This document shows positions 11,325 through 17,031 of a stretch of 64,000 nucleotides of DNA, in pieces. Location: assembly GCF_057098645.1 (NCBI RefSeq), contig NZ_CM169472.1, one strand, 5' to 3'. Every line of letters starts with the position of its first letter. The first letter of the stretch is position 1. Below the pieces are notes generated by a model. It saw only the letters and a list, made by a program, of their open reading frames with translations. It was not told where the DNA came from and did not search any database. The position numbers and the translations under genes are program-made.

Positions 11325-12677
11325 GTGTTTATTGGTTTTGATTACGGTACAGCAAACTGTTCAGTGGCGGTCATGCGTGACGGTAAACCGCAATTACTGA
11401 AAATGGAAAACGACAGCACGCTGCTGCCTTCAATGCTTTGCGCGCCAACGCGTGAAGCAGTAAGTGAATGGCTGTACCGCCATCATGATGTTCCGGCAGA
11501 CGACGATGAAACGCAGGCGCTGTTATGTCGGGCGATTCGTTATAACCGCGAAGAAGATATCGATGTTACGGCGAAAAGCGTGCAGTTCGGTCTTTCCTCA
11601 CTGGCACAGTACATTGATGATCCAGAAGAAGTGTGGTTTGTGAAATCACCAAAATCGTTCCTCGGTGCCAGCGGCTTAAAACCGCAGCAGGTAGCGCTGT
11701 TTGAGGATCTGGTCTGCGCAATGATGTTGCACATTCGCCAGCAGGCGCAGGCGCAGCTGCCAGAAGCGATTACTCAGGCGGTGATTGGTCGCCCGATCAA
11801 CTTCCAGGGGCTGGGCGGCGATGAAGCAAACGCCCAGGCGCAAGGGATTCTGGAACGCGCGGCGAAGCGTGCCGGATTCAGGGACGTGGTATTCCAGTAC
11901 GAGCCGGTCGCGGCTGGGCTGGATTACGAAGCCACCTTGCAGGAAGAAAAACGGGTGCTGGTGGTGGATATCGGCGGTGGTACGACTGACTGTTCATTGC
12001 TGCTGATGGGACCGCAGTGGCGTTCGCGTCTCGATCGTGAAGCCAGCCTGCTGGGTCACAGTGGTTGTCGTATTGGCGGTAACGATCTGGATATCGCCCT
12101 GGCGTTTAAAAACCTGATGCCACTGCTGGGTATGGGTGGCGAAACCGAAAAAGGCATCGCCCTGCCGATCCTGCCGTGGTGGAATGCGGTTGCCATCAAC
12201 GACGTACCTGCGCAGAGTGATTTCTACAGTAGTGCCAACGGTCGTCTGCTTAACGATCTGGTACGCGATGCCCGCGAACCGGAAAAAGTGGCCCTGTTAC
12301 AGAAAGTCTGGCGTCAGCGTTTAAGCTATCGCCTGGTGCGTAGCGCAGAAGAGTGCAAAATTGCTCTTTCAAGCGTAGCGGAAACCCGCGCCTCACTGCC
12401 GTTTATCAGCAATGAACTGGCTACGCTGATTAGCCAGCGAGGGCTGGAAAGCGCCCTCAGCCAGCCACTGACGCGGATTCTGGAACAGGTGCAACTGGCC
12501 CTGGATAACGCCCAGGAAAAACCGGACGTTATCTACCTGACCGGCGGTAGCGCCCGTTCTCCGCTGATTAAAAAAGCGCTGGCAGAACAGTTGCCGGGCA
12601 TTCCGATTGCAGGCGGCGATGACTTTGGCTCCGTCACCGCCGGGCTGGCACGCTGGGCGGAAGTGGTGTTTCGTTAA
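11325..12677 (+). CDS. yegD: Hsp70/actin-fold ATPase-like protein of unknown function
   Basis: 450-aa ORF with Hsp70 phosphate-1-like FIGFDYGTANCSVAV and phosphate-2-like VVVDIGGGTTDCSLL motifs; no obvious substrate-binding domain. Confidence 0.85.
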   Translation: MFIGFDYGTANCSVAVMRDGKPQLLKMENDSTLLPSMLCAPTREAVSEWLYRHHDVPADDDETQALLCRAIRYNREEDIDVTAKSVQFGLSSLAQYIDDPEEVWFVKSPKSFLGASGLKPQQVALFEDLVCAMMLHIRQQAQAQLPEAITQAVIGRPINFQGLGGDEANAQAQGILERAAKRAGFRDVVFQYEPVAAGLDYEATLQEEKRVLVVDIGGGTTDCSLLLMGPQWRSRLDREASLLGHSGCRIGGNDLDIALAFKNLMPLLGMGGETEKGIALPILPWWNAVAINDVPAQSDFYSSANGRLLNDLVRDAREPEKVALLQKVWRQRLSYRLVRSAEECKIALSSVAETRASLPFISNELATLISQRGLESALSQPLTRILEQVQLALDNAQEKPDVIYLTGGSARSPLIKKALAEQLPGIPIAGGDDFGSVTAGLARWAEVVFR

Positions 12678-12689
12678 TTGAAAAATGGC

Positions 12690-14639
12690 TCAGCAGCGGC
12701 TTAAATCTGCCTGCGCCTGAGCCAGTTTTTCTGCTGCCTGACGTAACGGTTCCATCAACGGCATGGTCCGTGCTGGAGCATGAAGGCGGAATCGCTGCAA
12801 CTCTGTCGCGCCGACTGTCAACGCCGATTCCAGCCGATGTCGTTTGGCGGTCATTTTCGCCATTACCGCTTGTCTGTCTGCTGGCGTTATCGCTTCATTC
12901 GGCCTGAACACAAAACGGCGTTCACAGCTCGCTTTCCAGTCGATAACCGCCTGGGTCAGATGGTCGCCAAACCCTTTCACTTGCTTAACGCCACGACGGG
13001 TAACATCTGCGGCTGTTTCAATACCAAAAGACCGTAACGCCGCTTTACGCGCAGGGCCAACGCCGGGAATAGAGGCAACATCAATAAAAAATCCCTCCAG
13101 AAACTTCTGCTTCTGCCGTTCCCTTGCAGTGTCATGAAGTGCTGCCAGAGCGCGTTTCTCTTCTTCCGGTAACCCGAGAATTTCGTCCTTCATTTTTTCG
13201 AGCATCGTCCGTTTGGCGATAAAACCTTCCAGGCCGCCTACCTGCTGGATCTGGCGGACTAAATGGTCATAGTCCATTTTCGCACGATTAAATGCCTCAC
13301 GGCGTTGCTGAACTTCTGCTTTGTACGCTTTGCTTGTCAGACTGCCAATAATCCAGATAGCCGCCAGCACAGGAACCAAAATAATATAACGCGGTTCTGC
13401 CTGAAGGCCGCAAAGCAGCAGCGATAATGCTGACAGTGCGATCTCAAGCAGAATGATGTATTCGCGCCGTAACAGGCCTAAAGGAAGCGGCCTGCCAGTC
13501 GGTTGGAAATGATCGGGTAATGGCAGTTGCAATGCTGGCGGTGCTACTGACGCCATCACCATCGCCCAGACTTTCGCCAGCACAAAATTCCCGCCGGTGG
13601 TAATGACCTCTTCGCCGAGATCAATAAAATAGATAACGCCTTGATTATCCAGCGTACACCACGGGCAGTCGGTCAAATGAGCGGGATAAACATGCATTGC
13701 CGAAACGGTACATTTCTTTAACTGTTGGCGTAGAGAATCCAGTGCTGCTACCCACGCTTTAGCCGTCGGACGCCCGGTTGCTACACCACTTTCCGTAAAC
13801 GCCTGCTGAAACATGGCTTCAACATCGCCCGGTAACATCGACAGCGGAATCGATCGTGGCGGCGGTTTTAAACCACGTCGCTGATTATCTGACGCGTAGG
13901 CATAACGGAAATGGGCAATATCCGTCTCCAGCGCATTACCCGCATCAGAGATAAGCGGCACACCAGAATAAGGATGCCGCCCACCAAACAAGACGTGAAA
14001 AATAAGCAACGCAAGGCCAAAATTATCGTGATTCGCGGTACGTTCAAAACCGACAAATGATGGCAAGGTTTGTAGCTCTGGCGGCGTAAAATGCGACACG
14101 CCGACTTCGCATAAATGCAGTGTGCCATTGGCGTTAATCTGAAAGGAGTCACTATCGATCAACACCACTTTGCTGTCGCGACCTACCATAAAGCTGTTCT
14201 GGTTTACGTCCCCCACGACGTGCCCGTGCTCGTGAACCGTAGCAAAAGATGAAGCAATATTGCGCGCAACATAGAGTAGAAAATCCCACGCACAATGAGG
14301 GTAACTCTGGCGACGATGTGCCGGGCTATAGATCATATGAATCGGTTCTTTACCAGAAACTTTTGGCATCATAAAACCGATAACTTTTCCGCCTCGCCCA
14401 CCGTGAAGCGTTGCCTGCGGCCAGGCGACATAATTCAACAACTGCGCGTCAGCTGTCGCAGCCATAAAGGCAAGTTTGTCCTGTTTTAAGGCGGGTGGCG
14501 GCGTGTGATAAATCTTGGCGACGCTATCGGCAAACTCCTCGATATCATAAACCGCACCTTCACCGCCTTTGCCCAGTTCACGGCCTGGCGTAACGCACTC
14601 ACCAGTAGCAGTATATAAAGTGGGTTTCATGGTAACCAC
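12690..14639 (-). CDS. yegI: Atypical membrane Ser/Thr protein kinase-like protein (N-terminal kinase-like domain, central TM segments, C-terminal helix-hairpin-helix-like region)
   Basis: 649-aa ORF; glycine-rich loop GKGGEGAVYD, lysine in VAKIY, catalytic-loop-like HVVGDVNQN, DFG-like IDSDSF, hydrophobic TM stretch (YIILLEIALSALSLLLCGL...VPVLAAIWIIGSL). Confidence 0.8.
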   Translation of the reverse strand: MVTMKPTLYTATGECVTPGRELGKGGEGAVYDIEEFADSVAKIYHTPPPALKQDKLAFMAATADAQLLNYVAWPQATLHGGRGGKVIGFMMPKVSGKEPIHMIYSPAHRRQSYPHCAWDFLLYVARNIASSFATVHEHGHVVGDVNQNSFMVGRDSKVVLIDSDSFQINANGTLHLCEVGVSHFTPPELQTLPSFVGFERTANHDNFGLALLIFHVLFGGRHPYSGVPLISDAGNALETDIAHFRYAYASDNQRRGLKPPPRSIPLSMLPGDVEAMFQQAFTESGVATGRPTAKAWVAALDSLRQQLKKCTVSAMHVYPAHLTDCPWCTLDNQGVIYFIDLGEEVITTGGNFVLAKVWAMVMASVAPPALQLPLPDHFQPTGRPLPLGLLRREYIILLEIALSALSLLLCGLQAEPRYIILVPVLAAIWIIGSLTSKAYKAEVQQRREAFNRAKMDYDHLVRQIQQVGGLEGFIAKRTMLEKMKDEILGLPEEEKRALAALHDTARERQKQKFLEGFFIDVASIPGVGPARKAALRSFGIETAADVTRRGVKQVKGFGDHLTQAVIDWKASCERRFVFRPNEAITPADRQAVMAKMTAKRHRLESALTVGATELQRFRLHAPARTMPLMEPLRQAAEKLAQAQADLSRC

Positions 14640-15388
14640 AGCGCCAGTGCCAACGTTTTATCATCATCGGTACGCTCGTTTACCGCCGGGCTCGACAAAA
14701 ACTGCTTTAACAATTCAGGTAATAAATCGAGTTGTTCCTGCGTTGCTGCCGCCAGTCCATTGAAAAACGGGGTAAAGAAAGGCACATGCGGAGAATTATC
14801 CAGCATATTTAACGCCAGTCGCTGAATACCATCCGTAAATGCTGCAACTTTATGCGCACGCTCAGTGCTGGTGAAAGTTTCCAGTCTGGAAACAGCATCT
14901 TCATCGCTAATGAAATGCGTCATATTGGCATATTCACCCACCATCGGCGTGAGCAGCAGTTCCAGACCACGACCAAAATCCACCACTACACCGCCGTCGC
15001 CAATTTGCATAATCAATGTGCCGTTAGCCGATGAAATCAATCCCAGAAACGTGCAGGCAAAATCGCGAACTGCTAATGCTTTGGCTTCTGCCTCGGCAAA
15101 AAGTCGTTGACGAATGGTCAGTACCATATTTGTGGCGAGGACATCATTAAGCCCCAATTCACCGTCCTGTACTTTTTGCACCATAAACGCCATCGCTTCA
15201 TTGACGGCGAGCTTCGCGCCTTCTCCTCCCTGCGAAACGCTACCTGCGCCATCAGCAAGGAACATCACCAGTAATGGCTGCTGGTCATTTAGCCAGGCAA
15301 CCTGCATCTGGCAGGCATCCTGACAAGGTAAATCAGCGCTAATGTGCGACGTTCCAACAGCGGATGCATAAACCAGACGCCAGCTCAC
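14627..15388 (-). CDS. pphC: PP2C-family Ser/Thr protein phosphatase
   Basis: 253-aa ORF with PP2C-type acidic metal-binding motifs ([12 protein letters not shown]); start overlaps yegL stop (ATGA) and its 3' end overlaps the yegI start by 13 nt. Confidence 0.8.
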
Positions 15389-16044
15389 ACTGACGTCCAG
15401 CCTTTTGGCGCTTCCAGCACAACTTCCGTTCCCGGCGTGGAGCGGGAAACCGAACGCAGTGAACTGGATAACCAGCTAAACAGTTCGCGGAATTGTAATC
15501 CCTGCAGAGACAAAGGCTGACGGACGCTGATTTGGGCCAGCGTCTTCATATCCGCCCCCTGAACACCGATGGAAAAGAAGGCAAACTTCTTATCTTCTTC
15601 CCCCTGAAACACTTTGTTGGCGGCAGCCTGCCACTCATCGGTTGGAGCGCCATCGGTGATCAGGAAAATCCACGGGCGATAATACGAAATACCATTTGCA
15701 CGATACTCACGTTTCCGCTCCTCTACCATATCCAGGGCTTTGGTAATGGCGGCACCCATTGGTGTATCGCCCTGGGCAAACAGAATGGGCGGGAAAAAAT
15801 TAGCGGCGCTGGTAAAGGGTTGTTCCACATGCACCGGGCCGAACGTCACAATACCAAGTTCCACTCTTTTTAAGGCCAGCGGGTCGGCAAGCAGCTCATC
15901 GCGAAAGGTAACCAATCCGGCGTTAAGTTCATTAATGGGTCTACCGTTCATCGAACCAGAAACATCCAGCAGCAAAATGCAGGGGCAACGTGGTTCCGGG
16001 TTACTGGCAAAATCGCTGGTGGCAAACGTGATTTGTTCGCTCAT
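15385..16044 (-). CDS. yegL: von Willebrand factor A (vWA) domain protein, TerY-like
   Basis: 219-aa ORF with MIDAS motif DVSGSM (DxSxS) and downstream TDG, the vWA signature. Confidence 0.8.
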
Positions 16045-16227
16045 AAGAAATCCTTTCTTAGAGAATTATTGAGGTCCGGTATCATACCGATTGCAATAAT
16101 GAAATAAGAGCAAACGAAGAAACTTTCAGAATTAGGCCCGGCGGCGCAGAAAATTTTGCTATTCGCCTCGCAAGAACGGAGAGCCGTCGATTGACACTAA
16201 GGGCGGAGTGACATAATTACAGGAGTG

Positions 16228-16375
16228 AGGGTTAGGGAGAAGTTTCCCCCTCCCCCTGGTGTTCTTAGTAAGCCTGGAAGCTAATCACTAAGAGTATCAC
16301 CAGTATGATGACGTGCTTCATCATAACCCTTTCCTTATTTAAAAGCCCTCTTCTCCGGGAGAGGGTTCCCCGTTT
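16228..16375 (+). ncRNA. sibA: Sib antitoxin sRNA, copy 1 (boundaries approximate)
   Basis: Starts just downstream of TTGACA...TAATTA; fully antisense to ibs ORF 1; ends at hairpin ccctcttctccgggagaggg plus T-run. Confidence 0.55.
16265..16324 (-). CDS. ibsA: Ibs-type hydrophobic toxin peptide, copy 1 (MMKHVIILVILLVISFQAY)
   Basis: 19-codon ORF with tandem ATG start and strongly hydrophobic sequence typical of Ibs toxins. Confidence 0.6.
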   Translation of the reverse strand: MMKHVIILVILLVISFQAY

Positions 16376-16556
16376 TAGCGTCCCGCTGAAATCGTCGGCT
16401 TACCTCCTTTCGCCCTGAATGCAGTCTATCGCTGACTTGCGGATAAAATAGTTTCAAGTGTGATTATTGCGTAACGACTCGCAAAGAATATTTGCTGGCA
16501 GGATCGCAGACTGCAAAGCCTGCAGATTGACAATCTTATCGTGAAGGCATACTTTC

Positions 16557-16703
16557 AGGAGTGAGGGTAGAGCGGGGTTTCCCCCGCCCTGGTAGTCTTA
16601 GTAAGCGGGGAAGCTTATGACTAAGAGCACCACGATGATGAGTAGCTTCATCATGACCCTTTCCTTATTTAAGGCCCCTTCCTCGGGAGGGGCTTTCCCG
16701 TTT
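16557..16703 (+). ncRNA. sibB: Sib antitoxin sRNA, copy 2 (boundaries approximate)
   Basis: Promoter TTGACA-N17-TACTTT; antisense to ibs ORF 2; terminator hairpin plus T-run. Confidence 0.55.
16598..16654 (-). CDS. ibsB: Ibs-type toxin peptide, copy 2 (MMKLLIIVVLLVISFPAY)
   Basis: 18-codon hydrophobic ORF antisense to Sib copy 2. Confidence 0.6.
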   Translation of the reverse strand: MMKLLIIVVLLVISFPAY

Positions 16704-16884
16704 CAGCGTCCCGCTGAAATCTTCGGCTTACCTCCTTTCGCCCTGTATGCAGTCTATCGCTGACTTGCGGATAAAATAGTTTCAAGTGTGATTATTGCGT
16801 AACGACTCGCAAAGAATATTTGCTGGCAGGATCGCAGACTGCAAAGCCTGCAGATTGACAATCTTATCGTGAAGGCATACTTTC

Positions 16885-17031
16885 AGGAGTGAGGGTAGAG
16901 CGGGGTTTCCCCCGCCCTGGTAGTCTTAGTATGCTGGGTAGCTAATCACTAAGAGCACCACGATGATGAGTATCTTCATCATGACCCTTTCCTTATTTAT
17001 GGCCCCTTCCTCGGGAGGGGCTTTCCCGTTT
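16885..17031 (+). ncRNA. Sib antitoxin sRNA, copy 3 (boundaries approximate)
   Basis: Third repeat of the promoter/sRNA/terminator block. Confidence 0.5.
16926..16982 (-). CDS. Ibs-type toxin peptide, copy 3 (MMKILIIVVLLVISYPAY)
   Basis: 18-codon hydrophobic ORF in the third repeat; two residue differences from copy 2. Confidence 0.55.
   Translation of the reverse strand: MMKILIIVVLLVISYPAY

Follow-up and report, generated by a model that had tools for sequence, protein, structure and literature searches.

The yegL-pphC-yegI operon of Escherichia coli belongs to the TerY-P triad family and is a candidate phospho-switch for defence

The yegL-pphC-yegI operon of Escherichia coli, which encodes a von Willebrand factor A (vWA) protein, a PP2C phosphatase and an atypical membrane Ser/Thr kinase, belongs to the TerY-P triad family, to which it is linked by the homology of all three proteins and by an identical gene order. 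The operon was examined in a stretch of 64,000 nucleotides (hereafter referred to as the window) of contig NZ_CM169472.1 from the NCBI RefSeq assembly GCF_057098645.1, where it occupies positions 12690-16044 on the minus strand; the window is 100% identical to E. coli O145:H28 RM12761. The operon is tentatively read here as a self-contained phospho-switch of the TerY-P type that functions in defence against phages or foreign DNA by means of a membrane-tethered kinase predicted to bind DNA.

In the literature and in databases the locus has a name, an annotation and a partial characterisation, and TerY-P is likewise a published concept; given this concept and the published biochemistry of PphC and YegI, the observation itself is not new. 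What is added here is a tested link between the literature on the E. coli kinase and phosphatase and that on TerY-P, together with a description of the yegI-type architecture, its breadth and its company in defence islands. E. coli has few pairs of a Ser/Thr kinase with a phosphatase, and that of YegI and PphC still lacks a substrate, a signal and a phenotype although two biochemical papers have been devoted to it. The first-pass annotation, which was made from the sequence alone, described the operon as an under-described system; this holds in so far as no physiological role has been assigned to the E. coli locus, although the products of yegI and pphC have already been characterised biochemically (Rajagopalan & Dworkin; 10.1101/303594, 10.1101/819920). 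Placement in the TerY-P family makes yegL, ignored in the enzymology, an obligatory third partner and provides residues that can be tested, namely those of the Ser-rich tail of YegL and of the CHCC ribbon and helix-hairpin-helix (HhH) motifs of YegI, while the co-occurrence of the cassette with Avs, Gabija, restriction-modification (RM) and Mrr genes in other genomes provides a concrete hypothesis of defence against phages or foreign DNA.

The ter cluster of the IncHI2 plasmid NZ_CP098184 (locus L089) was taken as the reference triad. In this cluster terW, terY1, terX, terY2 and terY3 (the last with a TerY-C domain) are followed by genes for a PP2C protein of 545 aa and a kinase of 499 aa. YegL was found to share 31% identity with TerY1 of the plasmid (E=6e-27) and to match TerY3 at E=1e-21; PphC aligned across its whole length with the C-terminal half of the Ter PP2C (BLASTP, 24% identity, E=2e-6); and the YegI family profile matched the Ter kinase over 317 columns, including the zinc ribbon, with a probability of 98.9% (hhalign, E=1.5e-17). 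The order vWA, PP2C, kinase is identical in the two triads. Because the three proteins are homologous and the gene order is the same, the operon is assigned to the TerY-P family, in agreement with the type proposed by the first-pass annotation, and the kinship held for every feature tested. A protein homologue search with YegL listed only E. coli variants, was uninformative on TerY and was replaced by a tblastn search of plasmids.

The two triads have further features in common, since a zinc ribbon follows the kinase in both and the vWA proteins share a C-terminal tail of the form W-x-S-x-S...S-x-S. The Ter triad, however, is embedded among terW, terX, terY1, terY2 and genes for TerD-family, ATP-grasp and phosphoribosyltransferase proteins, whereas yegL-pphC-yegI stands alone. 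TerY3 (346 aa) carries an extra TerY-C domain that is absent from YegL (219 aa), and the Ter PP2C is extended at its N-terminus by ~270 aa as compared to PphC (253 aa). Neither the membrane hairpin nor the coiled-coil/HhH domain of YegI is present in the Ter kinase, and the ribbon ligands are CCCC in the Ter kinase and CHCC in YegI. In another IncHI2 plasmid, NZ_CP042898 (L088, 12414-16351), ISApl1-mcr-1-pap2 lies directly after terY3, at the place where NZ_CP098184 has the PP2C and kinase genes, and this colistin-resistance transposon seems either to have taken the place of part of the Ter triad or to have displaced it.

According to papers that quote the original proposal (PMC11090510), the TerY-P triad was put forward by Anantharaman, Iyer and Aravind in 2012 as a metal-sensing switch. 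The first-pass annotation treated the triad as a purely computational proposal; the concept was indeed published in 2012, but relatives have since been shown to be anti-phage (Gao 2020, as reported in PMC11090510; 10.1101/2022.08.12.503731). These stand-alone systems resemble the E. coli operon in being independent three-gene cassettes of vWA, PP2C and Ser/Thr kinase, located in defence islands, as these two accounts describe them, and in carrying a putative nucleic-acid-binding module at the C-terminus of the kinase. They differ in that a fusion of the kinase to an OB fold is described for them in PMC11090510, whereas YegI has a zinc ribbon, a two-pass anchor and a predicted (HhH)2 domain, and its model contains no OB-like strands at the C-terminus but the membrane hairpin, coiled coil and HhH motifs instead. 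Phage defence has been demonstrated experimentally for the stand-alone systems, while for the E. coli triad it is proposed. A variant of TerY-P from Pseudomonas aeruginosa protects from Autographiviridae, with most cells surviving (10.1101/2022.08.12.503731). The TerY-P modules of the McrBC-related CoCoNuT Types II and III-A likewise combine vWA, PP2C and a kinase with a C-terminal zinc ribbon (PMC11090510), but they are part of larger McrBC/HEPN operons and their kinases lack a membrane anchor and HhH motifs; no CnuB/C/H/E-like neighbours were found beside yegI-type cassettes in the neighbour comparison of the sampled loci. We define the yegI-type architecture, on the basis of sequences and a structural model, as a TerY-P triad in which the C-terminal part of the kinase is predicted to consist of a membrane hairpin, a coiled coil and (HhH)2.

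The kinase domain of YegI (residues ~1-300; 13731-14630, minus strand) is supported by the family invariants, by matches of its profile to kinases in the PDB and by Foldseek. It carries GKGGEG at residues 20-25, K39, the catalytic-loop D141 and D159-S-D161-S162-F163, of which K39, D141, D159, D161 and S162 do not vary among 72 diverse homologs; GDVNQNS is found in place of HRDxxxxN and DSDSF in place of DFG. The glycine loop, the beta-3 Lys, the catalytic loop and the unusual DSDSF that had been recognised at first reading are thus all present, with core residues that are invariant in the family. Among the folds that the first-pass annotation had proposed to check by profile searches, Pfam supported VWA, PP2C_2 and HHH_5 but not Pkinase, which gave no match to YegI even at E<=10, and only weak matches over the kinase region were obtained in NCBIfam and PADLOC. 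The kinase assignment nevertheless holds, since the profile of the 72 homologs finds 525 sequences of kinases in the PDB at E<=1, the best of them at 7.5e-6, and the AlphaFold2 model, with a mean pLDDT (predicted local distance difference test) of 93, retrieves PknB, PknA and BRAF as the top Foldseek matches (probability 1.00, target template-modelling score ~0.7). YegI is accordingly predicted to have the bilobal fold of the Hanks-type kinases, with the catalytic Lys and Asp and non-canonical motifs.

These predictions can be set beside published enzymology, in which YegI is an active kinase that prefers Mn, requires K39 and D141, loses its activity when DSD is changed to DFG or DSG and autophosphorylates at S153, S160 and S162, serines within or close to the DSD loop, with second-order kinetics (10.1101/819920), the last of which suggests dimers. 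The classical pairs PknB-PstP, PrkC-PrpC and Stk1-Stp1 are similar in the kinase fold, in an adjacent PP2C that dephosphorylates the kinase and in autophosphorylation of the activation loop. YegI differs from them in the absence of an extracellular PASTA sensor, in VGDxxQxS for HRDxxxxN and DSD for DFG (10.1101/819920), a divergence too great for Pfam Pkinase, and in the obligatory vWA partner and a cytoplasmic domain predicted to bind DNA.

A zinc-ribbon-like element follows the kinase domain (residues ~303-330; 13641-13724, minus strand). Its putative ligands C307, H313, C322 and C325, read here as a CHCC ribbon, are invariant in the 72 homologs and fall, in the hhalign comparison with the Ter-plasmid kinase, on its C...CPYC ribbon. 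The membrane hairpin (residues ~387-436; 13323-13472, minus strand) consists of two hydrophobic helices, placed in the model at 389-409 and from 418 onward, and has low sequence conservation; fusions to PhoA-LacZ have established that YegI crosses the inner membrane twice and has its N- and C-termini in the cytoplasm (10.1101/819920). The C-terminal cytoplasmic domain (residues ~440-646; 12693-13313, minus strand) forms a helical coiled-coil scaffold with two HhH motifs (residues ~515-571; 12918-13088, minus strand). HHH_5 of Pfam is matched with an i-E value of 0.0025 in the whole protein and 4.5e-4 in the isolated C-terminus, and at E<=0.1 in 20 out of 30 family members, and G525, G536 and G553-F-G555 are conserved in this region; the (HhH)2 domain is predicted to bind DNA. 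The membrane region and the HhH-like C-terminus noticed at first reading are therefore borne out by these analyses. In several relatives (P0123, P0143, P0165, P0176, P0216, P0221, P0226 and P0259) the module of kinase and ribbon (residues ~1-385) is shared while the C-termini are different and longer, up to 1158 aa, and some of these relatives with long C-termini have weak SMC/LmuB-like coiled-coil matches in PADLOC. The kinase-ribbon module thus seems to have been combined with several alternative C-terminal domains.

The Pfam match of PphC is PP2C_2 (4.4e-48), and acidic metal-binding positions (D46/G47, D131/G132, D186/G187 and D242/D243) are conserved among 76 sequences of the family, as expected from the PP2C motifs first noticed in the sequence. 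PphC is an active, Mn-dependent PP2C in which D46 is essential; autophosphorylated YegI is a substrate for its dephosphorylation and the catalytically dead PphC-D46N is in turn phosphorylated by YegI (10.1101/303594). YegL matches VWA (1.6e-9) and VWA_2 (5.5e-7) of Pfam, and its metal-ion-dependent adhesion site (MIDAS), consisting of D27-x-S29-x-S31, T94 and D131, is complete, as had been claimed, each of its residues being kept by at least 95% of the 76 members of the family. The same degree of conservation (at least 95%, 76 sequences) is observed for W191, S193, S195, S200 and S202 in the Ser-rich C-terminal tail. Coupling between the C-terminal helix and the state of the MIDAS is established for vWA domains of the integrin type. 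Overproduction of YegL, and likewise of YegI, results in a strong 'DNA-damage-up' phenotype (10.1101/354589).

Relatives of YegI were grouped into 9648 clusters at 50% identity (E<=1e-3), 3235 of them at E<=1e-30, and a scan of one genome per species identified them in at least 541 species. They are distributed among the Proteobacteria, Acidobacteria, Firmicutes, Actinobacteria, Cyanobacteria, Planctomycetes and Desulfobacterota and the archaeal Methanoregula/Methanomicrobiales. The genes for vWA, PP2C and kinase-HhH follow one another on one strand in 75 of 83 loci, and as the other eight are broken or cut by the end of a contig, the arrangement is found in all 75 loci in which it can be tested. 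The three genes therefore co-occur far beyond Escherichia, contrary to what would have refuted the first-pass annotation, and an arrangement that recurs so regularly is not due to chance. The three-gene cassette is the unit of conservation, with YegL as its obligatory third member. A conserved fourth gene was looked for and rejected, the recurrent neighbours being common paralog families (NtrB/NtrC, ABC ATPase, HrpA, TetR) or limited to one clade. The convergent yegD (11325-12677, plus strand), whose Hsp70/actin-like product matches NCBIfam PRK11678 with 807 bits, was likewise rejected as a component of the system, for it adjoins the cassette in only 2 of 84 loci and its adjacency is specific to Escherichia; overexpression of yegJ has been reported to induce yegD (a 2026 paper).

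Identity to YegI is 91-94% in other Escherichia, whereas the values for Klebsiella spallanzanii and the Burkholderiales are 62% and 60%, and Salmonella, Citrobacter and Enterobacter are absent from the best 80 loci. Taken together, this pattern points to a probable horizontal acquisition of the operon at the base of Escherichia. Mobility is also evident elsewhere, as tblastn detected the cassette on 74 plasmids from organisms other than E. coli, including Pseudomonas pQBR103 and plasmids of Agrobacterium and Rhizobium; in pQBR103 it lies near genes for a Y-family polymerase, RNase HII and HU, and in Chromobacterium it lies beside Tn7-like TniQ/TniB genes. An origin from phages was considered and rejected, because a collection of phage genomes gave only one distant and partial match, despite perfect PHROG matches. 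The three PHROGs concerned (phrog_37888, phrog_37072 and phrog_28389) match YegI, PphC and YegL end to end with very high scores and probably derive from host DNA within a prophage record.

Defence genes in the vicinity of the cassette were surveyed in 21 loci outside Escherichia, comprising six with precomputed Pfam annotation over 10 kb and 15 further loci, chosen in advance for taxonomic spread, in which ~2 neighbours each were tested against PADLOC. Recognised defence genes are located nearby in ~10 of the 21 loci, a share that seems to be well above the expectation for random genes but, with no matched background, is suggestive and not a statistic. Four of the six annotated contexts include defence genes within 10 kb and the other two have none: SLFN-type helicase, MazG-like, ScoMcrA, SNase, BrxR and JetB in Piscinibacter; AbiH and KAP NTPase inside the Tn7-like element of Chromobacterium; GmrSD, type I RM, SymE and BrnA in Klebsiella; and type I RM with Mrr on a metagenomic contig. 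Clear PADLOC matches among the 15 loci include Avs2 (2449 bits), a type I restriction endonuclease, a C5-methyltransferase, two Mrr-like nucleases and, next to one cassette, GajA together with GajB (715 and 736 bits). Three of the 15 are ambiguous (a helicase with weak PbeA/Cas3 matches, PDC-M58A and mad2), and in six no PADLOC match was obtained for the ~2 neighbours tested in each.

The homology to the Ter triad, the strict gene order, the breadth of distribution, the occurrence on plasmids, the defence neighbours, the published role of TerY-P relatives in defence, the enzymology and the purifying selection on the E. coli genes together lend support, short of what would be needed for confidence, to a role of the operon in defence. 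A mechanism may be proposed in which PphC would keep the system dephosphorylated at rest. Foreign DNA arriving at the inner membrane, during phage genome entry or conjugation, would be bound by the tethered HhH domain, and the binding would bring YegI molecules together through the HhH and coiled-coil regions, leading to dimerisation and autophosphorylation; a change in divalent metal read by the MIDAS of YegL may contribute. Active YegI would then phosphorylate YegL, the probable sites being in the conserved Ser-rich tail at its C-terminus, and/or proteins of the host or the phage, and the infection would be blocked. The block would probably not involve killing of the cell, as is proposed from the Pseudomonas TerY-P relatives, which protect with most cells surviving. 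The DNA-damage phenotypes of overproduced YegL and YegI are in keeping with an interaction with DNA. If the proposal is true, nearly all E. coli would carry on the chromosome an immune module that uses a DNA-binding kinase in the membrane as its sensor.

A more far-reaching form of the proposal, which we consider rather unlikely as a whole, is that the yegI-type cassettes represent a subtype of TerY-P immunity in its own right, and a very widespread one, in which a kinase tethered to the inner membrane would detect foreign DNA during its passage across the membrane via the cytoplasmic (HhH)2 domain and be switched on by dimerisation, YegL would be the phosphorylated effector or adaptor and PphC would reset the system. 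In E. coli it would then be a species-wide, normally silent core immune module, which would have been overlooked because the operon of K-12 is split by yegJ.

Several observations weigh against a role in defence. Of 5426 complete E. coli genomes, 5416 (99.8%) carry the operon, in a single copy and at the same place in the chromosome, and such species-wide fixation is unusual for defence systems, which as a rule are present in some strains and absent from others. The G+C content of the operon is unremarkable (0.48-0.53), the ratios of nonsynonymous to synonymous substitution (dN/dS) against K-12 and UTI89 do not point to diversifying selection, and its expression in laboratory culture is reported to be barely detectable (10.1101/819920; a 2026 paper). 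No recognised defence gene was found in 11 of the 21 sampled contexts, 15 of the 21 being represented by two neighbours per locus, and a literature search retrieved no experiment linking the E. coli operon to phage resistance. With the TerY-P models of PADLOC-DB v2, YegL gave only a 'TerY' match of E=0.0095 (13.5 bits), PphC was unmatched and YegI was matched by the generic kinase models PD-T4-6 and MkoA; the canonical TerY, PP2C and kinase of the Ter plasmid, used as a control, are likewise unmatched by the TerY-P models, so that these models are narrow and their negative result is weak evidence, indicating only that the operon is not of the narrow Gao-type clade. Finally, both DNA binding by the HhH motifs and the role of YegL as a substrate are steps that we infer.

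The fixation in E. coli is also the main argument for a housekeeping role in stress signalling, in which the MIDAS of YegL would sense divalent-metal, tellurite-type or envelope stress and the kinase and phosphatase would relay the signal to chromosomal targets. Purifying selection on a core locus, the full conservation of the MIDAS, the Mn dependence of both YegI and PphC, the occurrence of the closest characterised genomic relatives in tellurite-resistance clusters, the original proposal of the triad as a metal-sensing switch and the fact that roughly half of the contexts sampled do not look like those of defence genes all accord with this explanation. It is nevertheless judged unlikely, since no partner or target gene is conserved with the cassette, the patchy distribution driven by horizontal transfer, with plasmids and a Tn7-like element, is atypical of housekeeping signalling, the frequent defence neighbours are left unexplained and no phenotype or inducing condition of the operon is known. 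The conserved HhH motifs of the YegI family and the strong phenotypes of overproduced YegL and YegI may alternatively be related to DNA damage or processing, in which case the HhH domain would tether the kinase, close to the membrane, to chromosomal DNA that is damaged or being replicated, and repair or replication factors would be regulated by phosphorylation. The location of alkA two genes away in E. coli and the polymerase, RNase HII and HU genes near the pQBR103 cassette could be cited in favour; however, a neighbourhood of repair genes is not conserved, the adjacency of alkA and of yegD is specific to Escherichia (2 of 84 loci for yegD) and a membrane kinase that is overexpressed may give rise to phenotypes indirectly, which makes this explanation improbable.

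The very low or undetectable expression raises the further question of whether the operon is a silenced and decaying relic without a current function in E. coli, for which the break of the pphC-yegI coupling by a yegJ insert in 35% of the genomes and the many truncated YegI clusters in the protein collection, some of them probably cut by contig ends, could also be adduced. Against K-12 and UTI89, however, dN/dS is 0.10-0.12 for yegI, 0.13-0.14 for pphC and 0.04-0.07 for yegL, similar to the neighbouring genes, which argues that the three genes are maintained by selection and are not decaying; the open reading frames (ORFs) are intact in the window, UTI89 and K-12, nearly all complete genomes retain the operon and the purified proteins are catalytically active. 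Decay is thus the least probable of these explanations. Defence against phages or foreign DNA, for its part, remains the reading that we tentatively favour for yegL-pphC-yegI.

The coordinates of the three overlapping genes on the minus strand, as given by the first-pass annotation, agree with the list of ORFs. yegL (15385-16044, 219 aa) starts with ATG and pphC, formerly yegK (14627-15388, 253 aa), with GTG. Their overlap of four nucleotides (15385-15388), consistent with translational coupling, had been described as ATGA and reads GTGA; four nucleotides is also the overlap most often seen between the vWA and PP2C genes of the 75 loci. For yegI two starts are available: an ATG at 14630 (12690-14630, 646 aa) and a GTG at 14639 (12690-14639, 649 aa). 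The ATG is better supported, as it is used by the RefSeq annotation of UTI89 and in published work (10.1101/819920) and fits the N-termini of all 19 aligned homologs, which read M-x-x-T-L-Y/F-T; the AlphaFold2 model and the published activity also relate to this form. The 13-nt overlap of pphC and yegI reported at first reading applies to the GTG start, whereas with the ATG start the overlap is the 4-nt ATGA at 14627-14630, which has been described earlier (10.1101/819920). The stop codons of yegI and the convergent yegD are separated by 12 nt. A scan for promoters and terminators detected sites no more numerous than in shuffled sequence, and an AT-rich, H-NS-type signature was looked for and not seen.

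The operon of the window is of the compact, translationally coupled form, which is found in 65% of the complete E. coli genomes, whereas in 1934 of 5426, including K-12, pphC and yegI are split by a 725-bp insert with an oppositely oriented yegJ (L092 10948-11672). The insert has been described as specific to K strains (10.1101/819920; a 2026 paper). The choice of strain therefore matters for experiments. The pphC allele of the window is in the minority, with 339 records at least 99% identical to it and 4924 of 5414 in the band of 90-95%, and is ~8% different from the common allele. Its synonymous divergence (dS) of 0.28 from K-12 and UTI89, as compared to 0.03-0.17 for the flanking genes, suggests an old allelic dimorphism or an imported segment. 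The activity of PphC is known to differ between strains (10.1101/303594), a difference that may be related to the allelic variation of pphC. In RefSeq the allele of the window is labelled as 'PP2C family' only, without the name PphC.

Upstream of yegL, ~1 kb with three Sib/Ibs modules precedes mdtABC. The modules are represented by three full-length matches to SIB_RNA (RF00113) of 141-145 bits at 16191-16339, 16527-16669 and 16855-16997 on the plus strand, corresponding to three tandem type I toxin-antitoxin modules in the yegL-mdtA gap, where the annotations of K-12 and UTI89 list no more than two Ibs toxins.

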